From the NCBI GenBank assembly GCA_022868165.1, contig JALHYA010000004.1, positions 149,432 to 210,112 on the forward strand: DNA of 60,681 nt, in the 5' to 3' direction. The notes beneath the pieces are model-generated. The model saw nothing but the letters and a program-made list of their open reading frames with translations, was not told the origin of the DNA and made no database searches. This stretch comes from Patescibacteria group bacterium. GTDB lineage: Bacteria > Patescibacteriota > Microgenomatia > UBA8517. How positions within the stretch are numbered: position 1 is the stretch's first letter; each line of letters opens with the position of its first letter. Below, one piece after another: positions 6,936 through 54,418 of the stretch. The translations under genes and the position numbers were made by a program.

Positions 6936-6941
6936 TTTTTG

Positions 6942-21526: not shown

Positions 21527-21532
21527 TTTCAA

Positions 21533-23496: not shown

Positions 23497-23541
23497 TTCT
23501 CTTTTGAGTATAGCCTTGATTCATTGTAGAATTCAATTGGA

Positions 23542-24876
23542 ATGGCTAAAATCAGGACTCGTTTTGCTCCTTCGCCAACCGGCGCACTTCATATCGGGGG
23601 ACTGCGAACGGCACTTTATGCTTACGCGATGGCAAAGCATTCATCCGGTGATTTTATTCTTCGGATTGAGGATACGGACAAAAAGCGTGAAGTTCCCGGC
23701 TCAAAAGAAAAAATCAAAGAGCTTTTGACATTAGAAGGCCTCAAGTGGGATGAATATTATGAACAGTCAAAGAGAGTTGAAGAAGGAATTTACAAAAAAG
23801 CAGCCGAAAAACTGGTCGCAGAAGAACACGCTTTTTATTGTCAGCACAAAGGTCGAAATGCCAAAGAAGAAGGATATTCAAAGGAGCTTCGCGACTCTTG
23901 CCGGGATTTGGGACTTAAAGAAGGCGCAATAAAGCTCAAAGTTTCCGACGGAGAAAAAATTTCCTTTACGGATTTTGTTTTGGGCAAAGAAGTTTCTTGG
24001 GACACGTCAACCGTTGCAGATACTACACTTCTTAAGTCCGATGGTTTTCCGACTTATCACTTGGCGGTCGTTGTCGACGATACAGACATGAATGTTACAC
24101 ATGTTTTAAGGGGACATGATTGGATGCCTTCAACGCCCGTTCATCTTCTTGTTTATAAATATCTTGGTTATAAAGTTCCGGAAATAGGGCATTTAACGGA
24201 TATACTTGACCCCGAAGGCGGAAAGCTTTCAAAGAGAAAGGGCAGCACATCTTTAGATGGACTTTTATCGGAAGGCTATCTTCCCGAAGCGATTCTGAAT
24301 TTTGTGATGCTTTTGGGTTGGGCCCCCAAGGATAACCGCGAGCAATTTAGCCTTGCAGAATTTGTCAAAACTTTCGACCCATCAGGTTTCCAAAAATCAA
24401 ATCCGATATTTAATAAAGAGAAACTGGACTGGTTTAGCGGCGAATATATTCGCCGAACTCAAAACTCAAATCTTAAATCTCAAATCTGGGAATTTCTCGG
24501 CAAGAAATATCCGGCCGAGTTAATAGAGCAAACTATCCCATTAGTTAAAGAAAGGATGAAAAAACTTTCAGATTATTGGTCTATGGCCGGATTTTTCTTC
24601 GAAGAAAAAAGACCGGATATGGCTTTATTCGGGTCGGACTACAAAAAGCATTTAACTTCTGCCCACGAGGCGCTATTAAGGATAGATACATGGAACAAGG
24701 CTTCGATCGACGATGCCCTTATGAATGAAGTCAAAGATAATTTATTCAACACGGGAGACTTTTTCATGGACTTGAGGGTCGCAATTACCGGAGGTAAATT
24801 TACTCCGCCAATCAATGATTCAATTGTCATTTTAGGAAAAGAAGAAACGCTTTCCCGGATAAAGAAAATTATATGA
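23542..24876 (+). CDS. gltX: Glutamate--tRNA ligase
   Basis: RFAPSPTGALHIGG (HIGH) and KLSKRKG (KMSKS). Confidence 0.92.
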   Translation: MAKIRTRFAPSPTGALHIGGLRTALYAYAMAKHSSGDFILRIEDTDKKREVPGSKEKIKELLTLEGLKWDEYYEQSKRVEEGIYKKAAEKLVAEEHAFYCQHKGRNAKEEGYSKELRDSCRDLGLKEGAIKLKVSDGEKISFTDFVLGKEVSWDTSTVADTTLLKSDGFPTYHLAVVVDDTDMNVTHVLRGHDWMPSTPVHLLVYKYLGYKVPEIGHLTDILDPEGGKLSKRKGSTSLDGLLSEGYLPEAILNFVMLLGWAPKDNREQFSLAEFVKTFDPSGFQKSNPIFNKEKLDWFSGEYIRRTQNSNLKSQIWEFLGKKYPAELIEQTIPLVKERMKKLSDYWSMAGFFFEEKRPDMALFGSDYKKHLTSAHEALLRIDTWNKASIDDALMNEVKDNLFNTGDFFMDLRVAITGGKFTPPINDSIVILGKEETLSRIKKII

Positions 24877-25850
24877 AGAGATCTCCTACCCAGACATATC
24901 AAGACATAGCGAAAGACAGGATTGGTTTTGAATTTCTCCGCAACAAACTTAAGCTAAAGCATCTTCAAGAAAAAGATAAGTTTTCAAAGAAGTTCCCACA
25001 TGCGGCAAAGTTTTTCGAAAGCCGGAAAGTTGACCTTGGAAAAATCCGACAGCATTCGGCGGCGATTTTGGGAGCCGGGGCATTAACGGGAACTCTTCTT
25101 TTGGCTCCTTCCACGGGTTTTGGAAGTTTATCTGTACCCAAAGAAATTTTACAAAGTGCCAAAAATTTGTCCCAAGCAAAAGGTTCGGAGTTTCCCCAGA
25201 AGCTTTTGCTTGATTCAATCTCACAAGTTCTTCCTAAAAAACCGCAGCCGCTAAATCGAAGCCAGGAAAAAACCTTGGAACAGCTGTTCAAAAATATAAT
25301 CGGTGTAACCGCCAAAGGAACTTTGGAAGGGGAACACTTAAATACTACCTATGGTTTAATCGGTGCCGAACAGCATCTTTACCGCTATCCCGGCGACAAT
25401 ATTACTCAGCATGGTACTGGTCAAATTTTAAAAGAGGGAATAGCGCCTGGTTTGGGAGCCTGGGGTTATTTCGCGCCGTCCGCAGATAAACTTTCGCCTC
25501 AACTGGCAGAAGACGAAAAATGGTATGCGGTCGTGCAAACTTTATATTTGCCCGACTGGAATAAGCGCCTGCCATACCTTCGGGACTGGTATAAATACAG
25601 AAAGGTCTTGATAGTAAATACCGACAACGGAAATGCGGTCGTTGCGGCCATTGCCGACTCGGGACCTGCAGCCTGGACCGGAAAACACTTTGGAGGAAGC
25701 CCTGAAGTAATGGAATACCTAGGGGGCCCGCGTTATAAAAAAGGACCGGTAGTTCTTTTTTTTGTGGACGACCCGGAAAATAAGGTTCCGTTAGGTCCGG
25801 TCGAATATAATAAGATTAACCTGCCGCAGTTGGCACTGAGTCAAGTCTGA
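24873..25850 (+). CDS. Hypothetical membrane-anchored protein, possible RlpA-like double-psi beta-barrel at C-terminus
   Basis: ATGA overlap with gltX. C-terminal KVLIVNTDNGNAVVAAIADSGP resembles RlpA/DPBB, but this is a weak call. Confidence 0.5.
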   Translation: MKRSPTQTYQDIAKDRIGFEFLRNKLKLKHLQEKDKFSKKFPHAAKFFESRKVDLGKIRQHSAAILGAGALTGTLLLAPSTGFGSLSVPKEILQSAKNLSQAKGSEFPQKLLLDSISQVLPKKPQPLNRSQEKTLEQLFKNIIGVTAKGTLEGEHLNTTYGLIGAEQHLYRYPGDNITQHGTGQILKEGIAPGLGAWGYFAPSADKLSPQLAEDEKWYAVVQTLYLPDWNKRLPYLRDWYKYRKVLIVNTDNGNAVVAAIADSGPAAWTGKHFGGSPEVMEYLGGPRYKKGPVVLFFVDDPENKVPLGPVEYNKINLPQLALSQV

Positions 25851-25854
25851 AAAT

Positions 25855-26208
25855 ATGAGTAAACTTTTCTACGATCATTTAATTGTTTTTGAAGAAATAG
25901 AAAGCGAAATCGATAAAAGCGCCAAGTCTCCCGAAGAGCGTGAAGAATTGTGGGGAATCGTTGATGAAATAGTCAACCATAGAGTAATGGCGGCCATATT
26001 GGATAAGCTTCCAAAAAAGCACCACGAAGAGTTTTTGGATATGTTCCACAAAGCTCCTCATGATGAGGCGCTTTTTGACTATCTCAAAGAAAAAGTCGGC
26101 GAGAATGTCGAGGAGTTAATTAAAGGCGAAATCGGCGATTTGGCCTACGAACTTTTGGAAGAAATCAGAGGAAAGGAAGGTCAGAAGGTTAGCGGCGAGA
26201 AGAAATAA
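25855..26208 (+). CDS. Hypothetical acidic 117-aa protein
   Basis: Glu/Asp-rich helical ORF. Its stop overlaps the start of the next gene (TAATG). Confidence 0.5.
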   Translation: MSKLFYDHLIVFEEIESEIDKSAKSPEEREELWGIVDEIVNHRVMAAILDKLPKKHHEEFLDMFHKAPHDEALFDYLKEKVGENVEELIKGEIGDLAYELLEEIRGKEGQKVSGEKK

Positions 26209-26519
26209 TGGACAAAAACTATCGCGGGCTGGGCTGGACAGACCATGCATTAAAGCGCATGGCTGACAGGAAAATTAGCCAAGGGGATGCCTGGGCAACA
26301 TGGAACCGTCCGGACCAAAGCAGAAAAGCCACCATAAAAGGAGCTTGGATTTACTACAAAACTTTTGGCAAAAACAAAATTGAGGTTGTGGCCAAAAAGG
26401 AGAACGGAAAGTGGGTTATTCTTTCGGTTTGGTCACGCACGATTTGGGGAAGACCCAAAAAGGCAGAGCCCTTTTTAAGCTTCTTGTGGAAGAGGATTTT
26501 GGCTTCGATCAAAAAGTAG
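26208..26519 (+). CDS. DUF4258-like small basic protein (toxin-like)
   Basis: WTDHALKRMADRKIS motif, similar to the DUF4258 HAxxRMxxR signature. 103 aa. Confidence 0.5.
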   Translation: MDKNYRGLGWTDHALKRMADRKISQGDAWATWNRPDQSRKATIKGAWIYYKTFGKNKIEVVAKKENGKWVILSVWSRTIWGRPKKAEPFLSFLWKRILASIKK

Positions 26520-26581
26520 CGGGAGACAGGTGTCAGGCCTTTTTCTTGGCTTTGTGCTACAATTAGCCTCGAAAGATTCAT

Positions 26582-26652
26582 TGGGAGATCGTCTAATGGT
26601 AGGACACGTCCCTCTGGAGGATGTAATCTAGGTTCGAATCCTAGTCTCCCAG
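26582..26652 (+). tRNA. tRNA-Gln (anticodon CUG)
   Basis: A 71-nt cloverleaf folded by hand. U1-A72 and G73 as in bacterial tRNA-Gln. Anticodon loop CUCUGGA. T-loop GGTTCGAATCC. CCA not encoded. Confidence 0.9.
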
Positions 26653-26666
26653 CACAATTTTAATGC

Positions 26667-27320
26667 ATGAATAAATCTACTACTTCAGACAATAATTTGG
26701 TCGAAATACAAAAAGTTAATCGTGCCACATACGATAATCTTGCCAATGAGTATGAGCAAAGAAACAAAACACTTAAAAATGTGACTGAGTATGCTTTATC
26801 ACTGTTTATAAAACACCTAAGTTCGGGGAAAGAAATTTTGGAAACTGGGTGTGCAGTTGGTTTAGCAATAAACATAATGGAGAGAAAAGGACTCAATGTA
26901 ACTGGAATTGATATTTCACCAAAGATGGTTAAATATGCAAAGAAAAGAAATCCTAAAAGCGATATTGTTTTAGGAGACTTTTTAACATATAAATTTGGTA
27001 AAAAATATGACGGCATTTTCTCGTTTGCATTCATTCATCTTTTTCCTAAAAATATTGCGTTAAAGATCCTAAAGAAAATGTATGAACTTCTTAAATCCGG
27101 AGGCGTGCTTTATTTAGGAACCAGCAGATCTAAACAAAGTTATGAATCTTGGGAAGTGAAAAAGGACTATCAGAATAAAAAGAGACGCTTCAGAAAACAT
27201 TGGACCCAGAAAGAGCTCGAAAACGCGCTTATTGAAACAGGTTTCAAAAAATTAGATTTATATATTATCGAGGATCCATTCAAAAAAGTATGGATGGATT
27301 TTGTAGTCCAGAAACCGTAG
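26667..27320 (+). CDS. Class I SAM-dependent methyltransferase
   Basis: Motif I ILETGCAVGLAI, followed by VTGIDISPKMV. Confidence 0.85.
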   Translation: MNKSTTSDNNLVEIQKVNRATYDNLANEYEQRNKTLKNVTEYALSLFIKHLSSGKEILETGCAVGLAINIMERKGLNVTGIDISPKMVKYAKKRNPKSDIVLGDFLTYKFGKKYDGIFSFAFIHLFPKNIALKILKKMYELLKSGGVLYLGTSRSKQSYESWEVKKDYQNKKRRFRKHWTQKELENALIETGFKKLDLYIIEDPFKKVWMDFVVQKP

Positions 27321-27327
27321 TATTTAT

Positions 27328-27437
27328 GGGCTCGAATGGTTCGAGACCCTACTGCTCAGCTCGGAGCAAGCAAAGCTTGCGGAGATCCTGAGTGAGCGAA
27401 GTGAATCGAAGGGCAAGTATATGCACCCCTAGTGACC
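27328..27437. repeat. Mosaic intergenic repeat, B-type copy 1 (with extra internal module)
   Basis: 38-nt core tgctcagctcggagcaagcaaagcttgcggagatcctg at 27353-27390 is identical to 28856-28893. The flanks ggctcg..gg(t)tc.agacc and cacccc(t)agtgac are also shared. Confidence 0.85.
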
Positions 27438-27492
27438 ATGATGCCTCAAAAAGCCCGAAATTTACCACTTAATGATATAATAACGGCCAATT

Positions 27493-28146
27493 ATGTCAGT
27501 TGAGTCTAATAAATCTCAGGAACCAACCTCAACTTTAAAACAAGTAGTAGAAGCCTACGGACGTGATCGATGTAACCCCGAGCTTCTAACCCAATTTATG
27601 TATGCTTTTTGGGCAGAAGCAGGCCAAAGAATTGGGAAAGAGTATGTTGTTTCTGAATTTCCCTTGAAATCTCAAGAGATTAAGGAGAGGATAAAAAACG
27701 GCCAAATGGCTATTTTTGTTCCAGCAGAAGTAAGTAGGATTGATTTAGGAAAAATGTTTCCTAAAATGGGAGGCTGGGTGGTTCAAGAAGAAAATTCAGT
27801 TGTTGACGGAGTCAATAATTTCGGTTGGCTTTGGATTGAGGATTCAGTTGATTCTCCAAATAGAAATACTACCCAAAGACAATTGGAAAAGAAATTCAAG
27901 AAAGAAAAAAGACAAGGACAATCATTAAGAAGTTATATTGTCGGAAGCCAAATTAATAAATTGTTAAATGATAAATATTTTGATGGAGGACAAATCTGGT
28001 CAAGGCTGCTGGGTTCTTGTCGTGGAGATGGGGTTCTTATCTCCGGCTTCGGTTCCCGTGGCGACCTGTCTGTCCATTCGTTTCTGTATCCTGAGGATCG
28101 CGATGAGTTCGTAGGTGGTCGTTCCGAGGAAGTGGTTAAACCTTAA
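27493..28146 (+). CDS. Hypothetical protein (217 aa), orphan
   Basis: Long ORF bracketed by repeat-bearing spacers. No motif recognised. Confidence 0.55.
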   Translation: MSVESNKSQEPTSTLKQVVEAYGRDRCNPELLTQFMYAFWAEAGQRIGKEYVVSEFPLKSQEIKERIKNGQMAIFVPAEVSRIDLGKMFPKMGGWVVQEENSVVDGVNNFGWLWIEDSVDSPNRNTTQRQLEKKFKKEKRQGQSLRSYIVGSQINKLLNDKYFDGGQIWSRLLGSCRGDGVLISGFGSRGDLSVHSFLYPEDRDEFVGGRSEEVVKP

Positions 28147-28195
28147 TTTTTGGAGTTTTTGTTCTTTTTAACCCTTTGAACTTTTTATACTGTCT

Positions 28196-28219
28196 CATTT
28201 AGCCTGGGTGTGAGACAAT
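28196..28219. repeat. Mosaic intergenic repeat, C-type copy 1
   Basis: catttagcctgggtgtgagacaat matches 33505-33528 with one mismatch. Confidence 0.8.
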
Positions 28220-28263
28220 CAGTTATAAGCGAAGCTTGAAACATTTTGTGTTATAAGGGTTGA

Positions 28264-28311
28264 AAGGTTCTAGACCGGCCATTCGATAAGCTTATGGCCT
28301 TCGGCCCGCTC
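28264..28311. repeat. Mosaic intergenic repeat, A-type copy 1
   Basis: aaggttctagaccGGCCATtcgataagcttATGGCCttcggcccgctc. Same architecture at 29812 and 34955. Confidence 0.85.
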
Positions 28312-28364
28312 AGCAATTACTCAGTGATAGAAATTTTACTCCACCTCGTTATATACTTTTAGGA

Positions 28365-28769
28365 ATGAAACAGTCAATTGTTTATGTAGCTTTGGTAGTT
28401 CGAGAGTACGACGAAGCAATTGAATTTTATACAAAAAAACTTCACTTTACCCTGATTGAAGATACATATCAGCCAGAACAAGATAAACGCTGGGTAGTCG
28501 TTGCCCCACCAGGTTCATCGGAAACAAAATTGCTTCTTGCAAGAGCTTCTAAACCTAAACAAAAATCGTTCATAGGTAATCAAACTGGTGGGCGAGTATT
28601 TCTTTTTCTCAACAGCGATGACTTCTGGAGAGACTACAATGAGATGGTTTCATTGGGTATAAAATTTGTAAGAAAGCCAAAAGTTGAATCATACGGTACG
28701 GTAGCAGTTTTTGAAGATTTATATGGAAATCTATGGGATTTAGTAGAGTTGAAAAAGAAGGAGAAATAG
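28365..28769 (+). CDS. VOC family protein (glyoxalase/bleomycin-resistance fold)
   Basis: 134 aa. Pattern YVALVVREYDEAIEFYTKKL ... FEDLYGNLWDL is typical of the VOC family. Confidence 0.85.
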   Translation: MKQSIVYVALVVREYDEAIEFYTKKLHFTLIEDTYQPEQDKRWVVVAPPGSSETKLLLARASKPKQKSFIGNQTGGRVFLFLNSDDFWRDYNEMVSLGIKFVRKPKVESYGTVAVFEDLYGNLWDLVELKKKEK

Positions 28770-28830
28770 AAATTTACTATAAATTGTTAAAGAAGCTGGG
28801 TTATAAATAAAAATCACCCTAACCAATTAT

Positions 28831-28905
28831 AGGCTCGTAAGGTCCTAGACCGACATGCTCAGCTCGGAGCAAGCAAAGCTTGCGGAGATCCTGCACCCCA
28901 GTGAC
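28831..28905. repeat. Mosaic intergenic repeat, B-type copy 2
   Basis: Contains the ggtcctagacc anchor plus the identical 38-nt core (28856-28893). Confidence 0.85.
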
Positions 28906-28967
28906 AGATTGTTAATTAATTTAATTTATTTGATTTGTAAGCTACAACCAATATATTATTAATTAGA

Positions 28968-29795
28968 GTGAATATTAAAAAGATATTGTTGTTGGTGTTA
29001 TTTTTCTTCTCTATTAGTTTTCTTATTCCAAAAACTTCAAAAGCAGTTGATTTACGGGAGGTGTTTACTTCAGAGGACTCGATTGTGGTAAAAATACAGG
29101 AGGGAATTGAATATTTCTTTGCCTTCAGGGTTGAAAATAAAGTAGCGGTGTTGGAAAAACAGGCTGAAAAAAGGTTGGTCATGGCACAAACTTATGCGGA
29201 TGAGGGTAATAATGAGAGGGTGCAAAATCTTTTGCAAAATTACCTTCAAATAAAAGAAAGACAGAATAATTTATTGGAAAAAACAAATAACAGTGAAGTT
29301 TTGGGGGCTGTTGAAGAAAGAACAATAGAACAGCAAAAAATGATGGAGGTAATAAAAACAAGGATAGATGAAGGCACAAAACAGAATGTTATTCAGGTTC
29401 AGGAACAAGTAGTAAATCAGGTAGCGAAACGAGTGATTGATGTAAATGGATCGGAAGGGGCAACTGGATTTTTAAATGAGGTTGTGCATGTCTGGGCACC
29501 CGGAACGGGGCCAGGAGGAGGGGAAGCGGGAGTAGTATATGCTGGTGGTGGAAAGTTAATATATGCCCCCGGAACAGGGACCGGAGGACAGGGTGGAATT
29601 GTAATCGAGGGCGGAGAAATGAAGTTTGCGCCGGGAACCTCTGAGGGTGGATCCAGCGGGGCCAATGTTCAGAATACGGTAATTGAAGGCGGGGGAAGCG
29701 GAGGTGGAGGAGGAACAACGATGGAGGGTGGAAATCAAAATATAGCTCCGGGCACTTCTTCTGGTGGTGAAGGAACGACAGTTGTTGGAGAGTAA
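28968..29795 (+). CDS. Secreted protein, DUF5667-like N-terminal domain plus Gly-rich APGT(G/S)xGG repeats
   Basis: GTG start, signal/TM segment, helical region EKQAEKRLVMAQTYADEGN, C-terminal four-fold APGTG / APGTS repeats. Confidence 0.65.
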   Translation: MNIKKILLLVLFFFSISFLIPKTSKAVDLREVFTSEDSIVVKIQEGIEYFFAFRVENKVAVLEKQAEKRLVMAQTYADEGNNERVQNLLQNYLQIKERQNNLLEKTNNSEVLGAVEERTIEQQKMMEVIKTRIDEGTKQNVIQVQEQVVNQVAKRVIDVNGSEGATGFLNEVVHVWAPGTGPGGGEAGVVYAGGGKLIYAPGTGTGGQGGIVIEGGEMKFAPGTSEGGSSGANVQNTVIEGGGSGGGGGTTMEGGNQNIAPGTSSGGEGTTVVGE

Positions 29796-29811
29796 GCGTT
29801 ATTGGGATAAA

Positions 29812-29875
29812 AAGGTCCTAGGCCGGCCATTCGACAAGCTCATGGCCTCCGGCCCGCTTCTTCGACTTCGCTCAG
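29812..29875. repeat. Mosaic intergenic repeat, A-type copy 2 fused to D-type copy 1
   Basis: A unit at 29812-29858. cttcgacttcgctcag at 29860-29875 is identical to 33482-33497. Confidence 0.85.
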
Positions 29876-29915
29876 AACTATAGTCAGCCAAGACGGGCAA
29901 GAAGGGTATATACTT

Positions 29916-31061
29916 TTGATGCAAATGAAATACTGGTCGATGGTGTTACACTTTTACCAGCCTCCAACACAGGAACTTCAAATAACCGAGACTGTCTTGA
30001 AATCAAGCTATCTACCACTTCTCAGAATCCTTTCGGAAAAGTCTGGATTCGGGTTGACGCTTAATATCGGTGGAGGTTTGATTTTACAGCTCAAAAAGCT
30101 TGGTGTAAATGAATTTTTTGATCTAGTAAAAAAACTTATTAGCGATGGGAAAATCGAAATCGTTAATAGTGTGATGTACCACCCTCTGATACCCATTATT
30201 CCAAAAGACGTTGTAGTTAGACAGATCAAAAAAAACAGTCAGACCTTGAAAAGTTTGTTGGGGGTAGAAACCACAAACGGTTTTTTTCCTCCCGAATTGG
30301 CAATAGACAATGAAAGCCTCAATTTAATAGACAGCAATTACATATTCATAGATGAAAGTTCACTGGAAACTCGCCTCGTTGCTAAGCGGGCAAAAGATTC
30401 AATAACTAAATATGGCGAAAAATATTTGTTAATAAATAACCGCGAGGTTTGCAACCTCTTACGGGCATACCCCAAAGAACTTCCTGCAAAAACTGTAATT
30501 GATTTGGTGCAGAAAAATTGCGATGAAGACGGTCTGATCGTGACGGCAAACGACGCAGAACTGTTTGGCCATCATTATTCGGAAAGACTGCAGGTGCTTT
30601 CCGATTTACTGAACGAACGGGAAATCAAATTTATCAAAGCTTCCGAGGCTGTAGTCAAGTTTGGTAGCCAAGCACTTGTAGTTTCTAAAGTTTTGCCATC
30701 CACCTGGCAGGACTGTAAGGGTTTCAGTCTATGGAGTAAAAATGCTTTGCAAAAGAAATATTTAGAACTATTAAAGATAATTTACGAGTTGACCTTGGGC
30801 GACTTGAGTACAACAACTCAGGATCTATTTGACCAGGGAAGTTCATCTTGTTATTTGTACTGGTTGTCGAATTGGCCGTGGTGGCATCCTGATTTGGTAC
30901 GGAAAGGTGCCGAGAACTTGATCAAATGTACAAAAAACGCCGAGGCTGAAGCGGTTTATCGCGATTTTTTGGATAAAATGTGGGAATATCACCGGTCGGG
31001 TAAAGTAGAAATTAAATATAAAGAGTACGATGAGAAGTTGTTAGCAACAAGAAGTAAATAA
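29916..31061 (+). CDS. Glycoside hydrolase family 57 protein
   Basis: LHFYQPPTQ N-terminal motif, FFPPELAID, and ANDAELFGHH (GH57 catalytic region pattern). The start may be the ATG at 29919 or 29925. Confidence 0.75.
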   Translation: MMQMKYWSMVLHFYQPPTQELQITETVLKSSYLPLLRILSEKSGFGLTLNIGGGLILQLKKLGVNEFFDLVKKLISDGKIEIVNSVMYHPLIPIIPKDVVVRQIKKNSQTLKSLLGVETTNGFFPPELAIDNESLNLIDSNYIFIDESSLETRLVAKRAKDSITKYGEKYLLINNREVCNLLRAYPKELPAKTVIDLVQKNCDEDGLIVTANDAELFGHHYSERLQVLSDLLNEREIKFIKASEAVVKFGSQALVVSKVLPSTWQDCKGFSLWSKNALQKKYLELLKIIYELTLGDLSTTTQDLFDQGSSSCYLYWLSNWPWWHPDLVRKGAENLIKCTKNAEAEAVYRDFLDKMWEYHRSGKVEIKYKEYDEKLLATRSK

Positions 31062-31062
31062 T

Positions 31063-31842
31063 ATGTACAAAGTTGCCGTTATCACCCCCTGCTATAATAG
31101 GGCCCAATTCATATCCGAATGCATTCAGTCAGTATCCCTTTCCAACACGTTTGGTATTTGTGAAATAGAACATATTATCATTGATGACGCTTCAACCGAT
31201 AATACATGGAACATTATACGTCAATCAAAAGTTCCAAACCTTACAGTCTTTAGACTAACTGAAAATAAGGGACCTGCCTTTGCACGAAATTATGCGATCA
31301 ATCAATGTGATGCTGATTTTATTTTTTGTCTTGATTCTGATGACGTGCTATTTCAAAATAGCCTATATTCTCTTCTAACCTTTGCACTCGAGAAAAAAGC
31401 AGACTGGGTGTACGGAGACATTATCCGAGGTGATAACCAGTTACGTTATCAAATAGGAAAAGACTTTTTTGGATGGAATTTTAAAACAATTGAAGATGTT
31501 CTAACTGCCATGTTTAAAAATGAGCATTTCTTTCAACACAGCAGTTTATTTTCTAAGACCGCTTTTGATAAAGCAGGTCGATATGATGATTCGCTACACC
31601 TTGCAGAAGACTTTGATCTCTTCACCCGCATGCTCCTGCGTGGATACTTTCCCTATTACTTGTCGGCACCACTCTATATCTATCGCGTCCATGATAATAA
31701 TCTTTCTAAGCCATATTTTATAAACTTAAAGAAACATAAAGAAGATATTCGCGAGTTATACGCAAAATATAAAGATGAATTTCAAGCTATACTTTCTAAA
31801 GATTCAATTGTCGCCATTGAACAGGCTCATTCAACATGGTGA
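31063..31842 (+). CDS. Glycosyltransferase family 2
   Basis: VITPCYNRAQFI ... IIIDDASTDNT ... DSDD motifs. Confidence 0.85.
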   Translation: MYKVAVITPCYNRAQFISECIQSVSLSNTFGICEIEHIIIDDASTDNTWNIIRQSKVPNLTVFRLTENKGPAFARNYAINQCDADFIFCLDSDDVLFQNSLYSLLTFALEKKADWVYGDIIRGDNQLRYQIGKDFFGWNFKTIEDVLTAMFKNEHFFQHSSLFSKTAFDKAGRYDDSLHLAEDFDLFTRMLLRGYFPYYLSAPLYIYRVHDNNLSKPYFINLKKHKEDIRELYAKYKDEFQAILSKDSIVAIEQAHSTW

Positions 31843-31856
31843 GGATTTAGATTAAG

Positions 31857-33443
31857 TTAGGAATATAGTGGTCTGTCTGTGGACGTGTTCGGAGATAGAT
31901 TGTTGGTGTGTAGTTCCTGTGCTTTTTGATACAGGTCAATATATTTTTGGGCAGACTTTCTCCAGGAGAAATCGGCCACCATTGCCCGCCTAATCATCTT
32001 TTTCCATGATGGAAGATTTTTATAAGTTTCAATTGCACGAACTACCGCAGTAAGTAACCCTTCAGGAACAAAGCTTTTGAACGTAAAACCATAACCAGTA
32101 CCTGACTTCGGATCATAATCAATAACAGAATCGGCCAATCCACCTGTTGCATGGGCTATCGGAATACAACCGTAACGCAAAGCTTCTATAGCAATTATGC
32201 CGCCAGGTTCGTATTTACTCGGAATTAAAATCATGTCAGACCCGGCAAGGACCTTCCTTGGCAGAGAGAAGTCACGTATGAGATGGGTTCCAACCTGACC
32301 CGGGTATTTTTTCTCCATTTTGGAAAAAAATTCTACAAAGTTTTGTTCACCTGAACCCGCAATGATAAACTGAACTCCCAAGTCTTGCACAATATACTCA
32401 AATTCCTTAACAAGGAGGTCTAACCCTTTTTGCAAATCTAATCGCCCAACATAACAAATAAGAGGCACCTCAGGGTCATTTTTTAAATTGAATCTTTTTT
32501 GCAAATCGAGTTTATTTGCGGTTCTAAGATTTAACGAATTTGAAGAGAATTTTTGTTTAATCATCTCATCTGCCGTTGGATTAAAATCAGTGGTGTCGAG
32601 ACCATTTAAAACACCATATAATTTTCCTCTTAATTCACGGAATAGATTTTCCAATCCACCGCCATACTCGGCATTTAGAAGTTCCTGGACATAAGTTTGT
32701 GAAACCGTATTGACAATATCTGCGTACATAACGCCGCGTTTTAAGGAATTTTGTTTGATGAGTTTGTCCGAAAAAATAGGCGCCAATTGGCTTTTGCCAT
32801 CATCGAAGTCCATCTCGTTAGCGTTCGCGAAATCAAACGTGCCTTGATATATATTGTGAATTGATAAAAGGGTGGAAATTTTTTTCAAAGTAGGATCCTT
32901 TTTATAATTGTCATCATTTTTTAAGAAATCAATTAAATATCCTGTGTGCCAATCATTCGCATGAATAAGGTCGGGTATAAAATCTCCCGTTTTAATAAAT
33001 TCCAAGGCAGCTTTGGAGAGAAGGCTGAAACGGATGTGGTCATCGTTATAGTTGTAGACATTGGCTCTTTTTTGGTAATACTCTTCATTGACCAGGAAAT
33101 AAACCGGAGCATCGCCTTTTGTCGGTTGGTAAAGCTCTACCGCACAATCAATATTAGTACCCTCTCCAGTTGGTATTTTTAAACTTGAAATAATTGTCTT
33201 GGTTGGGTATTTGCTAGGATCAACAAGACCATATTTTGGAGTGAATATTCTGACATCGACCCCCAGTTTCTTAAGCGAACGGGTCAAAAAGTGGGCAACC
33301 TGAGATAATCCGCCTACAGAAGAAAACGGTGCGACTTCGGCACAAACAAATAATACCTTCAATTTTTTTGACAACACTCTCCGTATTATACATCTTTTGA
33401 GCGTATAAACAGTGCTTTTGAGATATTCCCTTTTTACAAACAT
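31857..33443 (-). CDS. glgA: Glycogen/starch synthase (GT5)
   Basis: KVLFVCAEVAPFSSVGGLSQV N-terminal motif. C-terminal GT-B motifs PSKYEPGGIIAIEALRYG. The start is uncertain (33443 ATG or 33362 TTG). The track start at 33527 lies inside repeat modules. Confidence 0.85.
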   Translation of the reverse strand: MFVKREYLKSTVYTLKRCIIRRVLSKKLKVLFVCAEVAPFSSVGGLSQVAHFLTRSLKKLGVDVRIFTPKYGLVDPSKYPTKTIISSLKIPTGEGTNIDCAVELYQPTKGDAPVYFLVNEEYYQKRANVYNYNDDHIRFSLLSKAALEFIKTGDFIPDLIHANDWHTGYLIDFLKNDDNYKKDPTLKKISTLLSIHNIYQGTFDFANANEMDFDDGKSQLAPIFSDKLIKQNSLKRGVMYADIVNTVSQTYVQELLNAEYGGGLENLFRELRGKLYGVLNGLDTTDFNPTADEMIKQKFSSNSLNLRTANKLDLQKRFNLKNDPEVPLICYVGRLDLQKGLDLLVKEFEYIVQDLGVQFIIAGSGEQNFVEFFSKMEKKYPGQVGTHLIRDFSLPRKVLAGSDMILIPSKYEPGGIIAIEALRYGCIPIAHATGGLADSVIDYDPKSGTGYGFTFKSFVPEGLLTAVVRAIETYKNLPSWKKMIRRAMVADFSWRKSAQKYIDLYQKAQELHTNNLSPNTSTDRPLYS

Positions 33444-33481
33444 AGTTTGCAAGCTCTGCTTATAGTGTCTTATTTGTCTTA

Positions 33482-33528
33482 CTTCGACTTCGCTCAGTAC
33501 TTCGCATTTAGCCTTGGTGTGAGACAAT
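33482..33528. repeat. Mosaic intergenic repeat, D-type copy 2 plus C-type copy 2
   Basis: cttcgacttcgctcag (33482-33497) and catttagccttggtgtgagacaat (33505-33528). Confidence 0.8.
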
Positions 33529-33817
33529 GGTTACAAGATTTATAAGGAGTATGCCTTACTTTGTCTACATTCTCCGTACCTCTTCAAACACTCTTTATAT
33601 CGGCCAAACAAACAACCTTGAAAGGCGGCTTCTGGAACACAAAAAGAAAAGCGGAAAATCAGCAAAATATATTCGCTATTTTTCTTCTTTTACCCTGGTT
33701 TATTCCGAAAAATATCAAACCAGAAAAGAAGCAATGAGTAGGGAAATTCAATTAAAAAGTTGGAGTAAAGCGAAGAAAGAAGCTTTGATTAAATCTAGAC
33801 CGGCCCGCTCTGTTTAA
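33527..33817 (+). CDS. GIY-YIG nuclease family protein (UPF0213-like)
   Basis: YFVYILRTSSNTLYIGQTNNLERRLLEHKKK (GIY...YIG...R...E). The start could be 33551. The last codons run into a repeat fragment. Confidence 0.8.
   Translation: MVTRFIRSMPYFVYILRTSSNTLYIGQTNNLERRLLEHKKKSGKSAKYIRYFSSFTLVYSEKYQTRKEAMSREIQLKSWSKAKKEALIKSRPARSV
33794..33810. repeat. Short form of the A-type repeat (anchor and tail without the hairpin core)
   Basis: tctagaccggcccgctc equals the A unit minus ccattcga...ttcgg. Confidence 0.6.
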
Positions 33818-34832
33818 AAATCTTAGTTATTTCGTCTTTGGCTGAAAAATCCAGATCTTCAATCTTTCCCGCAGTCACTATTTTAAGCCCCTGATTTTTC
33901 TCCTTAATCTCTCCTATGGTGGTAGCTAAAATCTTGTGTTTTCCTAAGACCGAAGTGATCGAATCTACGCTTTCTGGAGGTGCAATGATTAATAAGGCTC
34001 CCGAAGCTATTGTTTTTAACGGATCTAAACCATATTCTCCGCAAAGGATGCTTGATTCTTCTAGAATTGGAATTTTTTCTTTGTCAACCAGCAAACCAAC
34101 CCGCGAGGCCTGGGCTACTTCATAAAGTCCGGCGGAGAGTCCTCCCTCTGTCGGATCGTGCATTGCATGAACTTCAAACTGGTTTGCCAAAAGTGCATCT
34201 CTAACTACTGAAAGGCCGGGTTTATGAAGAAAGTTTTGACATTTTCGGATAAACTCTTCGCTGTATCCTCTCTGTCTTAATTCTTCCCGTTTTTCTCTAG
34301 CAATAATCGTTGTGCCTTCGACAGCTACCCCTTTTGTTAAGATAATTGCGTCTCCGGGTTTAGCGCCCGAGGTTGAAACCAATTTTTCCCTAGCTACCTC
34401 GCCCAACATCGTACCAACAACAATTGGTCTGTCCAAATTGTAGGTAACTTCGGTATGTCCTCCAACCACTGATACGCCCAGTGTTTTGGCAGCTTCGGAA
34501 ATTTGAGCAAAAATCCTTTCAGCTTCTTCCTCGGTAGTTTTTCCTTCTGGAAGAAGTATGGTTGCTTGAAACCATTTTGGAACAGCGCCAGTTGTAGCGA
34601 TATCATTAGCATTAACCTGAACTGCATACCAGCCGATTTCTTCTGTCGCAAACGTGATGGGGTCGGTTTTTACTACGAGATAGCGGTCGGGAAAATCAAT
34701 TACCGCCGCGTCCTCGCCTAATTTTGGCCCCAGCACTACCCGAGGATCAAGTATGGTCTCATATTTTTTAAGTAGTCTTGACAAAATAGGAAAATCCAAT
34801 TTCCCGAGAGGTAAAATTTTTTTCGTCTTCAC
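33795..34832 (-). CDS. AIR synthase-related protein (PurM/ThiL/HypE superfamily)
   Basis: GEDAAVIDF ... VVKTDPITF ... NDIATTGAVP N-domain pattern and a PurM-like C-domain. Confidence 0.75.
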   Translation of the reverse strand: MKTKKILPLGKLDFPILSRLLKKYETILDPRVVLGPKLGEDAAVIDFPDRYLVVKTDPITFATEEIGWYAVQVNANDIATTGAVPKWFQATILLPEGKTTEEEAERIFAQISEAAKTLGVSVVGGHTEVTYNLDRPIVVGTMLGEVAREKLVSTSGAKPGDAIILTKGVAVEGTTIIAREKREELRQRGYSEEFIRKCQNFLHKPGLSVVRDALLANQFEVHAMHDPTEGGLSAGLYEVAQASRVGLLVDKEKIPILEESSILCGEYGLDPLKTIASGALLIIAPPESVDSITSVLGKHKILATTIGEIKEKNQGLKIVTAGKIEDLDFSAKDEITKIFKQSGPV

Positions 34833-34954
34833 TCTTTCTCCTTCAAGAGCAATAGCTTAGCAAGTTAAATAGCTAATAATCAAGCTAAAGAGCCTCTTAA
34901 TACACTCCGACTTTGATATAATTGGCTGATCTTGAAGATCCATCCGTAAACAGA

Positions 34955-35002
34955 AAGGTCCTAGACCGGCCATTCGACTGGTTCATGGCCTTCGGCCCGC
35001 TC
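34955..35002. repeat. Mosaic intergenic repeat, A-type copy 3
   Basis: aaggtcctagaccGGCCATtcgactggttcATGGCCttcggcccgctc. Confidence 0.85.
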
Positions 35003-35021
35003 GGCAAGATGAGGTAAAAAT

Positions 35022-35465
35022 TTGAAAATGAAAAAACAATCATCAGTTATAATATTTATTGACTGTGAAGGAAACTTACTTCTTCAAGAAAGGGGCAGTT
35101 ATTCTAAGGGGGGAGAGAAACACGGTTATTTTGGAGGTAATATTAAAAAAGGAGAAAAACCAAAAGATGCCTTAATAAGGGAATTAAAAGAAGAATTAAA
35201 CTATGTCCCTAAAAAAATTAAATTCTGGAAAAAGGTTAGCTTTTTATGCACCGCAGAAGGAAAATATAATAATTTTAAGGTTACTGTCTATATTTTTGTT
35301 AGTCCTTTGACCAAAAGAGTGGAGAAAGCTAAGGTATACGAGGGTGAAGGGTTAATAAAGACCACTCTCGACGAGGAATTAGAAAGCGAAAATTTTACAG
35401 GAGGATACGAAATCATACTCAAAGAGATTAAAAACCACTTTGCTGAAGTGTTGGAGTTGCTTTAG
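35022..35465 (+). CDS. NUDIX hydrolase
   Basis: Nudix box GGNIKKGEKPKDALIRELKEELNY. TTG at 35022 or ATG at 35028. Confidence 0.8.
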   Translation: MKMKKQSSVIIFIDCEGNLLLQERGSYSKGGEKHGYFGGNIKKGEKPKDALIRELKEELNYVPKKIKFWKKVSFLCTAEGKYNNFKVTVYIFVSPLTKRVEKAKVYEGEGLIKTTLDEELESENFTGGYEIILKEIKNHFAEVLELL

Positions 35466-35513
35466 GATAATTGATAAGGACTGAAATGTTCTAGACTGTC
35501 CCGCCCAGCTGGA

Positions 35514-35854
35514 ATGAAAAAGAAATATTACCACCAAAAACTCATCGGGATAAAATCCCGGAAAAGATTAAATCTACGGGTGACGACTATAAAGCCAGAG
35601 TTTTGGGTAAGGCGGAATTTGAAAAGGAATTAAAAAAGAAACTGGTTGAAGAGTCCAAAGAACTTGCCCAAGCTCCAAAAGAAGAACTTCTTAATGAACT
35701 CGCCGACGTATTGGAACTAACCAAATCTATTGCGTCCCATTACAAAATTCCATTTTCAAAAGTCGAAAAGTTTCAGGAAGAAAAAAGAAAGAAAAGGGGA
35801 GGGTTTAAAAAGAAATTATTTCTTGTCTGGTCGACCGGCAAGGCCGGAAAATGA
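35514..35854 (+). pseudogene. MazG-like all-alpha NTP pyrophosphohydrolase (KLxRDKIPE family), apparent 1-nt frameshift near 35546
   Basis: The ATG frame gives MKKKYYHQKLIG. The -1 frame continues RDKIPEKIKSTGDDYKARVL...EKRKKRGGFKKKLFL. Together they restore the family N-terminus KLIRDKIPE. Confidence 0.6.
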
Positions 35855-35882
35855 TAGGATTGTCTAAAGTCTGGCCGGCCAG

Positions 35883-36683
35883 CTAGTGGTATTTGCCTCT
35901 CTCGTCGTGGCACTGGTTTTTCTTATCCCAGCAGACATTTTGGCAGGTTGGATCATCGGGGTAGACATCGGGACAACCGCTTCTTTTTGGATCAAAAAAG
36001 GGTAAACAAACTCCGCTCGGCGGAGCGCATACGTATTGCAGGGGTGCTGGCGGAGGAGCGGCAGTTGGCGTTGGTACTCCCGGCTCTTCGGTAGGAGAAG
36101 TAGGGCTTGGTGTTGGGGTAAACGTAGGAGTGGGTAATCCTCCTTGACCGGTGGGAGTTGGAGTAGGAGTAGGCAGCGGAGGTGGAGTTGAGCCTTCTGC
36201 AACACAGTAATTGTTTAAATTTTTATTTGTGCTTGCGACTCCATAGTTGAATTTACAATCCGGGCCGCAGCCGTTCCGCCGACAATCAACGCGGTCAATT
36301 ATTGTGTCGGCAGTAAATTCCAAATCTGCGTAGAGCTGATACCATTTGCTGCAGGCGCCGCCTTCGTTGACATAAACATATGAGCTTTTGGGTTTCGGGT
36401 CGCAAGGAATATTAGCAAGAACATTTAAATCGTCAATTTTCAATGGATTGCCGCAAACGGGAATGGCAACAGGATAGCAGCCTTTATCCTGGTAATACTC
36501 CTCGATACCTTTTGAGATTCTAAGAAGGTCTGCTTTTCTTCTTGCATCCCTTGCTCTTTGGAATTGGGGTGCTGCAGAGACGTAAGTTGTGCCCGAAACT
36601 ATTCCTAAAATTGCGGTAACGATGAGGATTTCAACTAAAGTGAATGAACGTAGGGGCCAGATTTTTCTTTGGCGTTTAGTCAC
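35883..36683 (-). CDS. Type IV pilin-like protein, Cys-rich with Pro/Thr-rich linker
   Basis: Prepilin-type N-terminus RSFTLVEILIVTAILGIV (Glu at +5), about 14 Cys, PT-rich segment PTPTPTPTGQGGLPTPTFTPTPSPT. Confidence 0.75.
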   Translation of the reverse strand: MTKRQRKIWPLRSFTLVEILIVTAILGIVSGTTYVSAAPQFQRARDARRKADLLRISKGIEEYYQDKGCYPVAIPVCGNPLKIDDLNVLANIPCDPKPKSSYVYVNEGGACSKWYQLYADLEFTADTIIDRVDCRRNGCGPDCKFNYGVASTNKNLNNYCVAEGSTPPPLPTPTPTPTGQGGLPTPTFTPTPSPTSPTEEPGVPTPTAAPPPAPLQYVCAPPSGVCLPFFDPKRSGCPDVYPDDPTCQNVCWDKKNQCHDERGKYH

Positions 36684-36704
36684 AACTAGAGTATAGCACC
36701 AAAA

Positions 36705-37889
36705 CTATTCGTAGCGGATAGCCTCTATTGGGGAAAGCTTAGCAGCTTTGTTTGCGGGAAATACTCCGAACACGATTCCGATTAACGAAGAAACACCTAA
36801 TGCCAACAAAACGGTGGTGAAATTGATGTATGCGGGAAACAATCGCTGTATGGCAATAACGACTAGGTAGGAAATTCCAAGGCCCAAAAGACCACCCAAC
36901 ACAGATAAAAGAACGGCCTCGGTTGTGAATTGCCAGAGGATATTTCTCTGGGTTGCCCCTATTGCGCGCCTTATTCCTATTTCCCTGGTTCTTTCGGTTA
37001 CGGATGCATACATAATATTCATAATTCCTATTCCGCCGACAACCAAAGAGATTGCTGCAATTGCCACCAAAACACTATTAAGAATTGTAAATATCGAGTT
37101 TATGGTGTTGAGAAACTCCGTCTGCTCCGTGACATCGAAATCTTCGGGTTTATATCTTTTGGCCAGAGCTTTTTTTGCGTCGATCTTAACTTGAGAGATG
37201 TTTTCGGAACTGTTTGCCTTAAGATAAATTCCAAAGAATTTTTTGTTTGGATTAAAACTTAGCGTTGCCGTATAGGGCATATACATTCTGTCGTCGATGC
37301 TTGGAGTGCCCACCCCGCCGCCCCCTTTTACTTTGGCAACTCCTATGACCTTAAAACCCTGGTCTTCAATTTTTAAAATTTTATTCAAGGCGCCGTCTAC
37401 ACTTCCGAATATTTTTTGCGCTGCGGAAGGCCCCAAAACAACAACCTTGTTTCCTTTTTCAAAATCGCTTTTTGTATATGCTCTCCCCCTGTCAATTTCC
37501 AAATTCAAAAGAGTGAAGATGTCGGCAGTGGAGCTTATAAACTCATAAGTTTCTGTCTTATTTGTACCCTTAATCCGAGTCATTTTTGCATAAATGGGAG
37601 CCGCAAGCTCGACGTTTTGGATTTTTCTCACACTGGCCGCGTCCCTCTCGTCAAACTGAATTCCTCCCACAACACCACCACTCAATGCCCCTCCCGGTAG
37701 TATAAAAATCAGGTTGCTCCCTAGGCTTTGGAATTGACGCTCGATATACCTTTTTAGACCGAGCCCAAAGGCCATAAGAAGGACAACGGAAGCGACTCCA
37801 ATAAGAATTCCTAAGGATGTAAGAAAAACCCTGCCCTTGTTTCTCTTGAAATCATCGATTGCCGAACGAATTAAAAATGGAATTTGCAT
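36705..37889 (-). CDS. ABC transporter permease, FtsX/MacB type
   Basis: MacB-like periplasmic domain between TM1 and TM2, and a C-terminal FtsX 3-TM bundle. I chose the start MQIPFLIRSAI abutting the ATPase stop. Confidence 0.85.
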   Translation of the reverse strand: MQIPFLIRSAIDDFKRNKGRVFLTSLGILIGVASVVLLMAFGLGLKRYIERQFQSLGSNLIFILPGGALSGGVVGGIQFDERDAASVRKIQNVELAAPIYAKMTRIKGTNKTETYEFISSTADIFTLLNLEIDRGRAYTKSDFEKGNKVVVLGPSAAQKIFGSVDGALNKILKIEDQGFKVIGVAKVKGGGGVGTPSIDDRMYMPYTATLSFNPNKKFFGIYLKANSSENISQVKIDAKKALAKRYKPEDFDVTEQTEFLNTINSIFTILNSVLVAIAAISLVVGGIGIMNIMYASVTERTREIGIRRAIGATQRNILWQFTTEAVLLSVLGGLLGLGISYLVVIAIQRLFPAYINFTTVLLALGVSSLIGIVFGVFPANKAAKLSPIEAIRYE

Positions 37890-37890
37890 T

Positions 37891-38568
37891 TTACAAATAT
37901 TTTTGGACAATTTTGCCGTCCTTAATAAATATTCTTCTTTTGGTTTTTGAGACCACGTTTTGGTCATGGGTTACAACAATTACCGTTACCCCAAATTTCG
38001 AGTTCAGACTTGCCAGAGTCACCATAATTTCTTTGCCGGTTTTCGAGTCCAAATTTCCCGTTGGCTCGTCGGCCAGGACCAACCCCGGTTTCATTACAAG
38101 TGCCCTTGCAATGGCTGCCCTTTGCTGCTGACCGCCTGAAATTTTATTGGGGAAAAATTTTGCTCTCTCGGTAAGACCAAGTTCCTCAAGAAGTTCGTCG
38201 GCCCTTTGTTTGGTATCAAATTCCAATTTTTTCTTTGCGTAGTGCGTGGGAAGAAGAATGTTTTCTTCAACGGTTAAGTTGTTTATTAGATTGAATTGCT
38301 GGAAGACGAAACCCACATATTCATTCCGCAGTTGAGAAATTTTGTTGTCGGAAAGTTTTGAAGTATCTTTTCCGTCAACGATTACTTTGCCGTAGGAAGG
38401 TTTATCCAATAGCCCCAAAATATGCATAAGCGTCGATTTTCCGCTTCCCGAGGAGCCCAAGATACCAACAAATTCTCCGTCCTTTATCGAGAGATTTATA
38501 TGAGAGAGTGCAGAGAATTTTTCACTGCCGACATCGTAAACTTTTCCGACATCCTCAAGCTTAATCAT
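37891..38568 (-). CDS. ABC transporter ATP-binding protein (MacB/LolD type)
   Basis: Walker A GSSGSGKST, signature LSGGQQQR, Walker B LVLADEPT. Confidence 0.9.
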   Translation of the reverse strand: MIKLEDVGKVYDVGSEKFSALSHINLSIKDGEFVGILGSSGSGKSTLMHILGLLDKPSYGKVIVDGKDTSKLSDNKISQLRNEYVGFVFQQFNLINNLTVEENILLPTHYAKKKLEFDTKQRADELLEELGLTERAKFFPNKISGGQQQRAAIARALVMKPGLVLADEPTGNLDSKTGKEIMVTLASLNSKFGVTVIVVTHDQNVVSKTKRRIFIKDGKIVQKYL

Positions 38569-39601: not shown

Positions 39602-39611
39602 ATGGCGAAGA

Positions 39612-39640
39612 AGTATAACTTAAAGACGGAGTAATTTCAA
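39612..39640 (-). promoter_or_regulatory. Consensus-like promoter TTGAAA-N17-TATACT, only 10 nt from the adaptor-gene ATG
   Basis: -35 at 39640-39635 and -10 at 39617-39612 on the minus strand. No Shine-Dalgarno between the -10 and the ATG. Confidence 0.55.
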
Positions 39641-39664
39641 AAATTGTGAGGTAGGAAAGAAAGA

Positions 39665-39706
39665 GAGAGTGGAGGCTCACAGGTAGTGTGAGTGGTCTCC
39701 ACTCTC
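39665..39706 (-). terminator. Long hairpin (10-bp outer stem plus 6-bp inner stem) downstream of the 88-aa ORF
   Basis: GAGAGTGGAG / CTCCACTCTC is perfect. Inner stem CTCACA / TGTGAG. Followed on the minus strand by CTCTCTTTCTTTCC. Confidence 0.5.
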
Positions 39707-39723
39707 GGCGTCAGCTAGCCAGA

Positions 39724-54352: not shown

Positions 54353-54418
54353 AAACGTTGACATCCTGAGTGAAATCGAATGGATGGAAGAAATGTCACT
54401 ATCCCCAATTAGGTTAGA

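Follow-up and report, generated by a model that had tools for sequence, protein, structure and literature searches.

The genomes of Candidate Phyla Radiation (CPR) bacteria, or Patescibacteria, are very small and few mobile elements can be recognised in them, which leaves the acquisition of accessory genes by these bacteria poorly understood. The pdif modules of Acinetobacter plasmids are delimited by 28-bp XerC/XerD sites in alternating orientation and are Xer-dependent. tRNA-linked or 'additive' flexible genomic islands, for example those of Alteromonas, are on record (PMC3698932, PMC3458243), and free-standing GIY-YIG homing endonucleases (the seg genes) are found in T4-like phages, with SegB in a tRNA gene region (PMC2988022, PMC13096335). 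In Patescibacteria themselves, predicted islands have been reported, with GIY-YIG and glyoxalase genes among the transferred genes (PMC12455944). Here, a stretch of 60,681 nt from a Patescibacteria genome (contig JALHYA010000004.1; the whole stretch is hereafter called the window) was analysed, in which a tRNA-Gln(CUG) gene is followed by about 9 kb of accessory genes separated by copies of a short repeat module. The literature on GIY-YIG proteins with tRNA-Gln or CPR, on integrons in Patescibacteria and on UPF0213/YhbQ gave no description of such an arrangement.

Comparison with relatives establishes the variability of this island, its boundaries, the polarity of its modules and the coincidence of junctions with modules. 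The island is probably an integron-like, polar cassette array anchored at tRNA-Gln, the cassettes of which recombine at the modules via an enzyme acting in trans.

A hypervariable island after tRNA-Gln

The ~9 kb after tRNA-Gln (26.58–35.88 kb) are a real hypervariable accessory island. The comparative data are assembled contigs, among which a close relative, L109/L110 (JGI contigs Ga0315284_10001764 and Ga0315295_10001323), was found via its GIY-YIG homologue. The left flank of the window (20276–26641; 6.4 kb) is 92.5% identical in L109/L110, with homology stopping inside or at tRNA-Gln (26641), and the right flank (35849–39799; 4 kb) is 95.3% identical, with homology resuming at 35849. These breakpoints lie within a few dozen bases of those foreseen in an earlier, sequence-only reading of the window, which had proposed presence/absence polymorphism bounded by the tRNA-Gln 3′ end and 35.5–35.9 kb. 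That reading had set the island at the 3′ end of the tRNA; the adjacency stands, yet the variable segment begins just 5′ of the tRNA, the allele of which differs from that of L109/L110.

Between these flanks, L109/L110 harbour ~10 kb with an ArsP/thioredoxin/ArsR cluster, a GT1 gene, a GIY-YIG gene, several hypotheticals, an AIRS-like gene, a DUF5667 gene and a 288-aa gene. The window and L110 have just three cassettes in common, namely AIRS-like (95.4%), GIY-YIG (88%) and DUF5667 (82%), and their order differs. Homologues of the DUF5667 protein are found in the same variable region of L038 (directly after tRNA-Gln), L053, L033, L048 and L110. Part of the island content (DUF5667, AIRS-like) recurs in the islands of relatives. 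Rather than a single integrase-borne element, the island is a cassette mosaic. In distant relatives the order GluRS, 325-aa gene, 117-aa gene, (DUF4258), tRNA-Gln is conserved and the content after the tRNA differs each time; in four loci (L035, L049, L039 and L080) the DAGK/PAP2/Lon block lies only 3–5 kb past tRNA-Gln, with unrelated genes between. Two scans were made for relatives. In GTDB, scanned with GluRS, identity did not exceed 67% even for the nearest relatives; synteny extended no further than the 117-aa or DUF4258 genes, and the four closest loci showed no tRNA-Gln. In JGI, scanned with the 325-aa protein, 80 loci were retrieved at ≤72% identity, which were used for polarity statistics and are too distant for breakpoints.

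The composition of the island is shifted in the way the sequence-only reading had proposed to check. GC content of the 9.2-kb island is 0.390 against 0.433 in the rest of the window, the lowest in the window; tetranucleotide distance, in a sliding window of island size, peaks at 26.5–35.7 kb (0.20 versus 0.10–0.15); and GC content at third codon positions (GC3) of island genes is 0.34 versus 0.42 (Mann–Whitney p = 9e-6). Moreover, all the accessory genes that had been listed as replacing housekeeping content after tRNA-Gln were found with the families stated, spacers are indeed longer in the island (120–218 nt) than elsewhere (mostly <50 nt), and the spacer repeats are real, being confined to 27.3–35.5 kb and absent from the other 50 kb.

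The repeat module, its polarity and the junctions of cassettes

The spacers share a ~40-nt module (TTATAAGG..GAAAGGTYCTAGACCGRCCCGCTCAGC), present in seven copies (m1 to m7) that are all on the + strand and absent elsewhere in the 60 kb, at 27322, 28250, 28827, 29798, 33780 (at the 3′ end of the GIY-YIG open reading frame (ORF)), 34950 and 35472. It is into this module that the spacer repeats resolve, among them a 61-nt repeat seen three times, a 67-nt repeat seen twice and several shorter ones. With a module profile built from 13 copies (threshold E <= 0.01), 60 matches were found in 28 non-redundant loci. Wherever a locus has more than one match, all its matches are on the same strand (14/14 loci), and in the 22 loci with a tRNA-Gln every module match (44/44) lies 3′ of the tRNA and is co-oriented with it, inverted tRNAs included. 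The median spacing of modules is ~960 bp, and 1.4 Mb of sequence contain 33 instances of the core CTAGRCCGG[CA]C, where ~1.1 would be expected. Module orientation tracks the tRNA and not neighbouring genes, as is seen from m6 and from one L110 module, which are found upstream of genes on the minus strand (the AIRS-like gene and an ars operon, respectively). The L120 array comprises at least 15 co-oriented modules in 11 kb of a 350-kb contig; at 3450–3740 of that locus stand four tandem modules with a spacing of 55–75 nt and no intervening genes, preceded by the GIY-YIG upstream module.

The features of the island, in window coordinates, are as follows.

26582–26653, + strand: tRNA-Gln(CUG), the anchor of the array
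26667–27320, + strand: S-adenosylmethionine (SAM)-dependent methyltransferase, first cassette; ATG 13 nt after the tRNA
27322–27365, + strand: m1 (..GGTTCGAGACCCTACTGCTCAGC), the copy in the window most like the tRNA T-arm and 3′ end
27366–27457, + strand: hairpin insert after m1 (GGAGCAAGCAAAGCTTGCGGAG..GAGCGAAG..TCGAAGG), then GCACCCCTAGTGACC..
27493–28146, + strand: 217-aa protein of an uncharacterised family (347 representatives)
28188–28229, + strand: GIY-YIG relic, comprising the upstream region and first codons, with the ORF deleted
28250–28316, + strand: m2, with a 26-nt hairpin inserted after GACCGGCC
28365–28769, + strand: VOC/glyoxalase-fold protein (PHROG 38088, phrog_38088, at 5e-69)
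28827–28893, + strand: m3 and hairpin insert
28968–29795, + strand: DUF5667 protein with Gly-rich tail and signal-like N-terminus
29798–29879, + strand: m4 with hairpin insert, then CTTCGACTTCGCTCAGAACT
29916–33443: three-gene glycogen-type cassette of GH57 (+), GT2 (+) and GlgA (−)
29916–31061, + strand: GH57
31063–31842, + strand: GT2
31857–33443, − strand: GlgA; start most likely 33443 (called on a source-run contig)
33482–33526, + strand: CTTCGACTTCGCTCAGTACT and the GIY-YIG upstream module, repeated at 29860 and 28193
33527–33817, + strand: small GIY-YIG nuclease, UPF0213, catalytic domain only (PF01541 at 3e-18)
33780–33816, + strand: m5, at the 3′ end of the GIY-YIG gene
33795–34832, − strand: AIR-synthase-related (AIRS-like) protein, HypE/ThiL/SelD-like
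34941–35007, + strand: m6 with a 26-nt hairpin
35022–35465, + strand: NUDIX hydrolase cassette
35472–35514, + strand: m7, containing the tRNA-like stretch 35485–35511
35515–35854, + strand: MazG-like/PRA-PH-like pseudogene; one T missing after 35544
35849–35882, + strand: right boundary; L110 homology resumes at 35849, and a degenerate module-like stretch GTCTGGCCGGCCAGC (35862–35882) abuts the pseudopilin stop codon

Junctions between the window and its relatives coincide with these modules. The DUF5667 block of homology with L110 ends at the m4 core (29828), the GIY-YIG block ends at GACCGGCC (33805), and the AIRS-like block (33813–34971) extends from the m5 end to the m6 core. Strain X2, which is 95–97% identical to the window over 29.85–40.6 kb, has a contig in which 15 bases of other sequence link 34968 to 35514, a joint in m6 and at the m7 end, and X2 therefore is without the NUDIX gene; its methyltransferase gene is absent too (depth 0). 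Contigs of X3 and X5 join 33498 to 34950, leaving out the GIY-YIG and AIRS-like genes. The glycogen-type cassette is ~97% identical in X2, X3 and X5, whereas the island of L110 lacks it.

The NUDIX gene was followed into two unrelated contexts, where its homologues have 74–79% protein identity and 77–79% DNA identity. In L120 it has modules on both sides, and in L123–L125 it starts 24 nt after tRNA-Gln(UUG), with GGGTCCTAGACCGGCCCGCTCAGC downstream. In all three contexts, the window being one, the similarity starts just past the ..CAGC of the upstream site and stops just past the ..CAGC of the downstream module, and in one of them the upstream boundary is a genuine tRNA 3′ end. Judged from these alignments, such a pattern is the behaviour expected of a cassette that brings its own site with it and enters at a tRNA-Gln 3′ end or at another module.

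The module itself resembles the 3′ end of the tRNA. The last 23 nt of the module agree with the last 23 nt of tRNA-Gln at 14 positions, ungapped and with the same spacing (GGTTC, 14 nt, CAGC), and m1 (GGTTCGAGACCC) and the L120 copy at 3514 (GGTTCGAAACCC) are nearer to the true T-arm than other copies; the seven window copies are degenerate, and the distal boundary of the island bears a module-like stretch as well. When the 3′ halves of the two tRNA-Gln alleles were used to scan the window, no match in the island rose above background, and the resemblance of 35485–35511 to the tRNA end, raised by the sequence-only reading, therefore cannot stand alone. It is not significant by itself; what stands is that the stretch belongs to m7, one of seven copies of an attachment-site-like module family.

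Fragments of tRNA-Gln are found near intact tRNA-Gln genes in L034, L039 and L062. In L034, 15917–16320 holds a tRNA-Gln 5′ fragment (18 nt, a 31-nt hairpin insert, 11 nt) and then a divergent GIY-YIG gene (37% identical); further on stand an intact tRNA-Gln, which is a different allele, and another GIY-YIG gene (74%). From its sequence, the locus looks like a tRNA gene that was disrupted and replaced. In the window, the GCACCCCTAGTGACC.. that follows the m1 hairpin is the sequence directly following tRNA-Gln in L110, L047 and L057, and it is plausible that spacer 1 is the remnant of a former tRNA-Gln with its native downstream flank; more simply, it may be the methyltransferase cassette's own module.

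Several modules carry inserts. The 26-nt insert after GACCGGCC is present in window m6 and absent from the orthologous L110 module, a GCAAGC..GCTTGC hairpin follows m1 and m3, and a 38-nt exact direct repeat (27353–27390 = 28856–28893) flanks the 217-aa and VOC pair. Contigs of the source sequencing run (Logan) break at this repeat, so the order of segments there rests on it, and excision or heterogeneity at the repeat may occur. In a scan for terminators and promoters the modules were not terminator-like, with counts at shuffle level, and at the Rfam gathering score they were matched by no known RNA family. They are also unlike repetitive extragenic palindromes (REP), bacterial interspersed mosaic elements (BIME) or miniature inverted-repeat transposable elements (MITE), being island-confined within the 60 kb, on a single strand and weakly structured. 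Viral contigs scanned with the module core gave nine matches, in which the rest of the module was missing and no tRNA was nearby, and which therefore give no indication of a phage attP. Outside the island, weak matches to CTTCGACTTCGCTCAG occur at 15776–15791 (−) and 54366–54381 (−), with one and three mismatches, at the convergent SecF/CCA-enzyme junction and in the SecA–TGT spacer, respectively.

As for the cassette genes, the 217-aa protein had been called an orphan, a label that falls: its family has 347 cluster representatives in a library of 1.8 billion proteins, and it is therefore uncharacterised, not orphan. The GIY-YIG relic in spacer 2 aligns with a score of 51.5, versus a maximum of 28.5 in shuffles. 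The VOC/glyoxalase match to PHROG family 38088 (unknown function) spans the full length, and the AIRS-like protein matches phrog_36592 at 3.5e-37. The MazG-like gene is frameshifted, as had been read from the letters: the T missing after 35544 is present in the X2 and X4 contigs, and in L033 an intact MazG-like gene stands directly after a GIY-YIG gene, the 3′ end of which occupies the position corresponding to m7.

Proposed cassette capture and its alternatives

The array consists of one- to three-gene cassettes, each closed by a co-oriented ~40-nt module. Under the integron-like reading, cassettes would be gained, lost and reshuffled through recombination at modules. The tRNA-Gln 3′ end would be the primary insertion site, analogous to attI, and the module would be the site borne by each cassette, analogous to attC, while the recombining enzyme would act in trans from a gene outside the island. 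A second process replaces whole islands via homologous recombination in the conserved flanks. Both the site-specific recombination and the identity of the enzyme are what we infer.

Several observations weigh against this reading. As the sequence-only reading had noted, there is no integrase or recombinase in the window: none was found, nor a transposase, among ~50 window proteins scanned against Pfam (island proteins also against NCBIfam and PHROG; flanks included), and no recombinase is among the families matched by at least two of 121 ORFs from the variable regions of relatives. The modules are without strong secondary structure in DNA folding, unlike attC, the z-scores being ~0 for five of the seven copies, with m2 (−1.25) and m1 with its hairpin insert (−3.76) as exceptions. 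In L120, no tRNA accompanies the array in the 20 kb that were retrieved. Simple recombination between window m6 and m7 would not yield the X2 junction, which speaks against a recent NUDIX event; identity to the available relatives reaches about 95% at most, which leaves single events without an order, and no excised circle or junction read was seen in the data, which are assembled contigs. Finally, the likeness of the module to the tRNA 3′ end, at only 14/23, is not significant alone; it gains weight because of the polarity, the adjacency and the fact that a cassette can have either a tRNA end or a module as its left boundary.

In a bolder version, which is less likely than not, the locus would represent an undescribed integron-like gene-capture system of Woesebacteria and related CPR, with the tRNA-Gln 3′ end as entry, a ~40-nt mimic of it in each cassette, and a trans-acting enzyme that is possibly the 90-aa UPF0213 GIY-YIG protein. 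If true, arrays of small cassettes that share a conserved site, are anchored at a tRNA and have no integrase nearby would offer CPR a concrete and testable way to gain and lose genes, and would give the first functional lead for the widespread UPF0213 GIY-YIG proteins. Furthermore, the module is a searchable marker of accessory regions in CPR metagenome bins, and one that causes assembly breaks, as source-run Logan contigs end at the repeats.

A replacement-type flexible island is the strongest rival, and an unlikely one: after DNA uptake, the block including the tRNA would be exchanged by homologous recombination in the flanks, and the modules would be passive (REP-like or regulatory), offering micro-homology for occasional deletions. 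Part of this does happen. The tRNA-Gln(CUG) alleles of the window and L109/L110 agree at no more than 49 of their 72 positions, the stem changes being matched, versus 92.5% identity in the flanks, and the window and L110 do not differ in the 16 nt 5′ of the tRNA; X2 combines the L110-type tRNA allele with window-type right-hand cassettes. Because even the tRNA allele has been swapped, replacement of whole islands through homologous recombination in the flanks is also at work; either the flanks are exchanged homologously, or the tRNA is replaced along with its first cassette. The 38-nt exact repeat around the 217-aa and VOC pair and the lack of a recombinase in the scans fit such replacement as well. 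It leaves unexplained, however, why all 44 modules are co-oriented with and 3′ of tRNA-Gln, why there is one module per cassette, and why the NUDIX gene turns up with identical boundaries in contexts that are unrelated, one of them the 3′ end of tRNA-Gln(UUG).

The GIY-YIG gene could itself drive the mobility, as a selfish, homing-type gene whose product cuts the module or the tRNA-Gln 3′ end, repair then copying the nuclease gene and neighbouring cassettes in the manner of the T4 seg genes; this is doubtful, and more so than replacement. The window protein is intact, 96 aa long and homologous to PDB 1zg2 and 1ywl, which are both UPF0213 members. Its family is 75–89% identical across >1,500 protein clusters from many CPR lineages, where housekeeping proteins have ~40–70%, and a driver would fit this conservation, though a housekeeping role is equally compatible with it. 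Also in favour are the constant co-orientation of the gene with tRNA-Gln, the deleted relic in spacer 2, the L034 tRNA-Gln 5′ fragment that precedes a GIY-YIG gene next to an intact tRNA-Gln, and the module at the ORF stop codon in the window (33794), L085 (CTC TAG ACCGGCC) and L034, the gene being a frequent cassette. Against these, some copies are without a module (L114), the family typically has 90 aa that the catalytic domain covers completely, leaving no DNA-binding domain, and no GIY-YIG gene was seen in the retrieved DNA of arrays L120 (15 modules), L042, L047, L053 and L062. The protein is hence a candidate driver or a very successful cassette, not an established enzyme.

Last and least probable, successive integrase-borne elements at tRNA-Gln could have decayed to their att repeats, losing integrases and most genes, which suits the tRNA adjacency, the repeated stretches resembling the tRNA 3′ end and the AT-shifted composition, but no integrase or fragment of one was seen in ~30 loci, the units of ~1 kb are far below the size of integrative elements, and the module moves together with single genes and does not match the 3′ end of the local tRNA (L123).

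Genomic setting and comparison with known systems

The window GluRS has 67% identity to that of Candidatus Woesebacteria GW2011_GWA1_39_21, and the gene order around GluRS agrees with many Woesebacteria-like metagenome contigs; by these matches, the host genome is Woesebacteria-like (CPR/Patescibacteria). Scanned proteins outside the island are housekeeping: the left flank encodes the CCA enzyme, RecJ, RelA (RelA/SpoT), AspRS, DacA and GluRS, the right flank a pseudopilin, MacB/ABC/HlyD, DAGK, PAP2 and Lon, and elsewhere in the window are RNase Y, MiaA, a ComM-like protein, SecDF, LysRS, SecA, TGT, RF and SerRS. RNase P RNA and two tRNAs are the sole Rfam matches of the window at the gathering score. 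The former, bacterial class A, lies at 6939–7235 (−; 116.8 bits) in the 499-nt gap between ORFs 5844–6827 and 7327–7770. Three short ORFs (8246–8539, 60276–60581 and 39724–39990) fit the codon usage of the window worst, with GC contents of 0.575, 0.585 (GC3 0.71) and 0.494, respectively, versus a window mean of ~0.43, and may be spurious, over non-coding or foreign sequence.

Invariably 5′ of the tRNA stand three conserved genes (24873–26519), which encode the 325-aa protein, the 117-aa protein and DUF4258; the 325-aa protein has no Pfam match and bears the invariant motifs TLEGEHLNTT, GLGAWGYFA and DSGPAAWTGK.FGGSPEVM. GluRS is followed by a same-strand tRNA-Gln(CUG) within ~0.02–2.1 kb in L005–L014, L024 and L026 as well (Chloroflexota/Anaerolineales and one Planctomycetia metagenome-assembled genome). 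This linkage, being present in distant phyla, is therefore old and possibly functional. In L082, L087 and L095 the HlyD/ABC/MacB block (window 36705–39601) comes directly after DUF4258 in opposite orientation, and eight loci have an inverted tRNA-Gln, which shows that the surroundings of the site are often inverted.

Among described systems, the seg genes of T4-like phages resemble the locus in that a GIY-YIG gene is wedged between genes near tRNA genes, in a region that is mosaic between relatives. Here, however, the protein consists of the 90-aa catalytic domain of UPF0213, lacks a DNA-binding domain and is not known to cleave, and it is missing from some of the arrays seen. With pdif modules the locus shares small gene modules between short conserved sites and a recombinase that would be encoded elsewhere; it differs in that its sites are all direct, unlike dif, and in that the array is chromosomal and tRNA-anchored. 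With tRNA-linked or 'additive' flexible islands it shares tRNA adjacency, conserved flanks, strain-variable content, atypical composition and repeats resembling the tRNA 3′ end, whereas it has no integrase, its units are ~1 kb versus 10–100 kb, and its repeat is ~60% like the tRNA end and carried with the cassette.

The likeness to integrons and to clusters of attC sites lacking integrases (CALIN) extends to organisation. Both are polar arrays of mostly single-gene cassettes, each with one co-oriented site-like repeat, in which cassettes vary between close strains and recur in other arrays. As in integrons, first-position cassettes begin within ~13–24 nt of the anchor, too close for a promoter, and, as in CALIN, no integrase stands next to the array. 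Differences from integrons are that no IntI was found in the window, its flanks or the families from relatives' ORFs, that the module is without R″/R′ boxes (RYYYAAC/GTTRRRY) on inspection of its consensus and without an attC-type hairpin, that the anchor is the 3′ end of a tRNA gene and not attI, and that several cassettes are multi-gene or reverse-oriented, with their own spacers. The arrangement thus lacks the defining traits of integrons and of classical integrative islands, yet works like an integron/CALIN array or an additive tRNA-linked flexible island.

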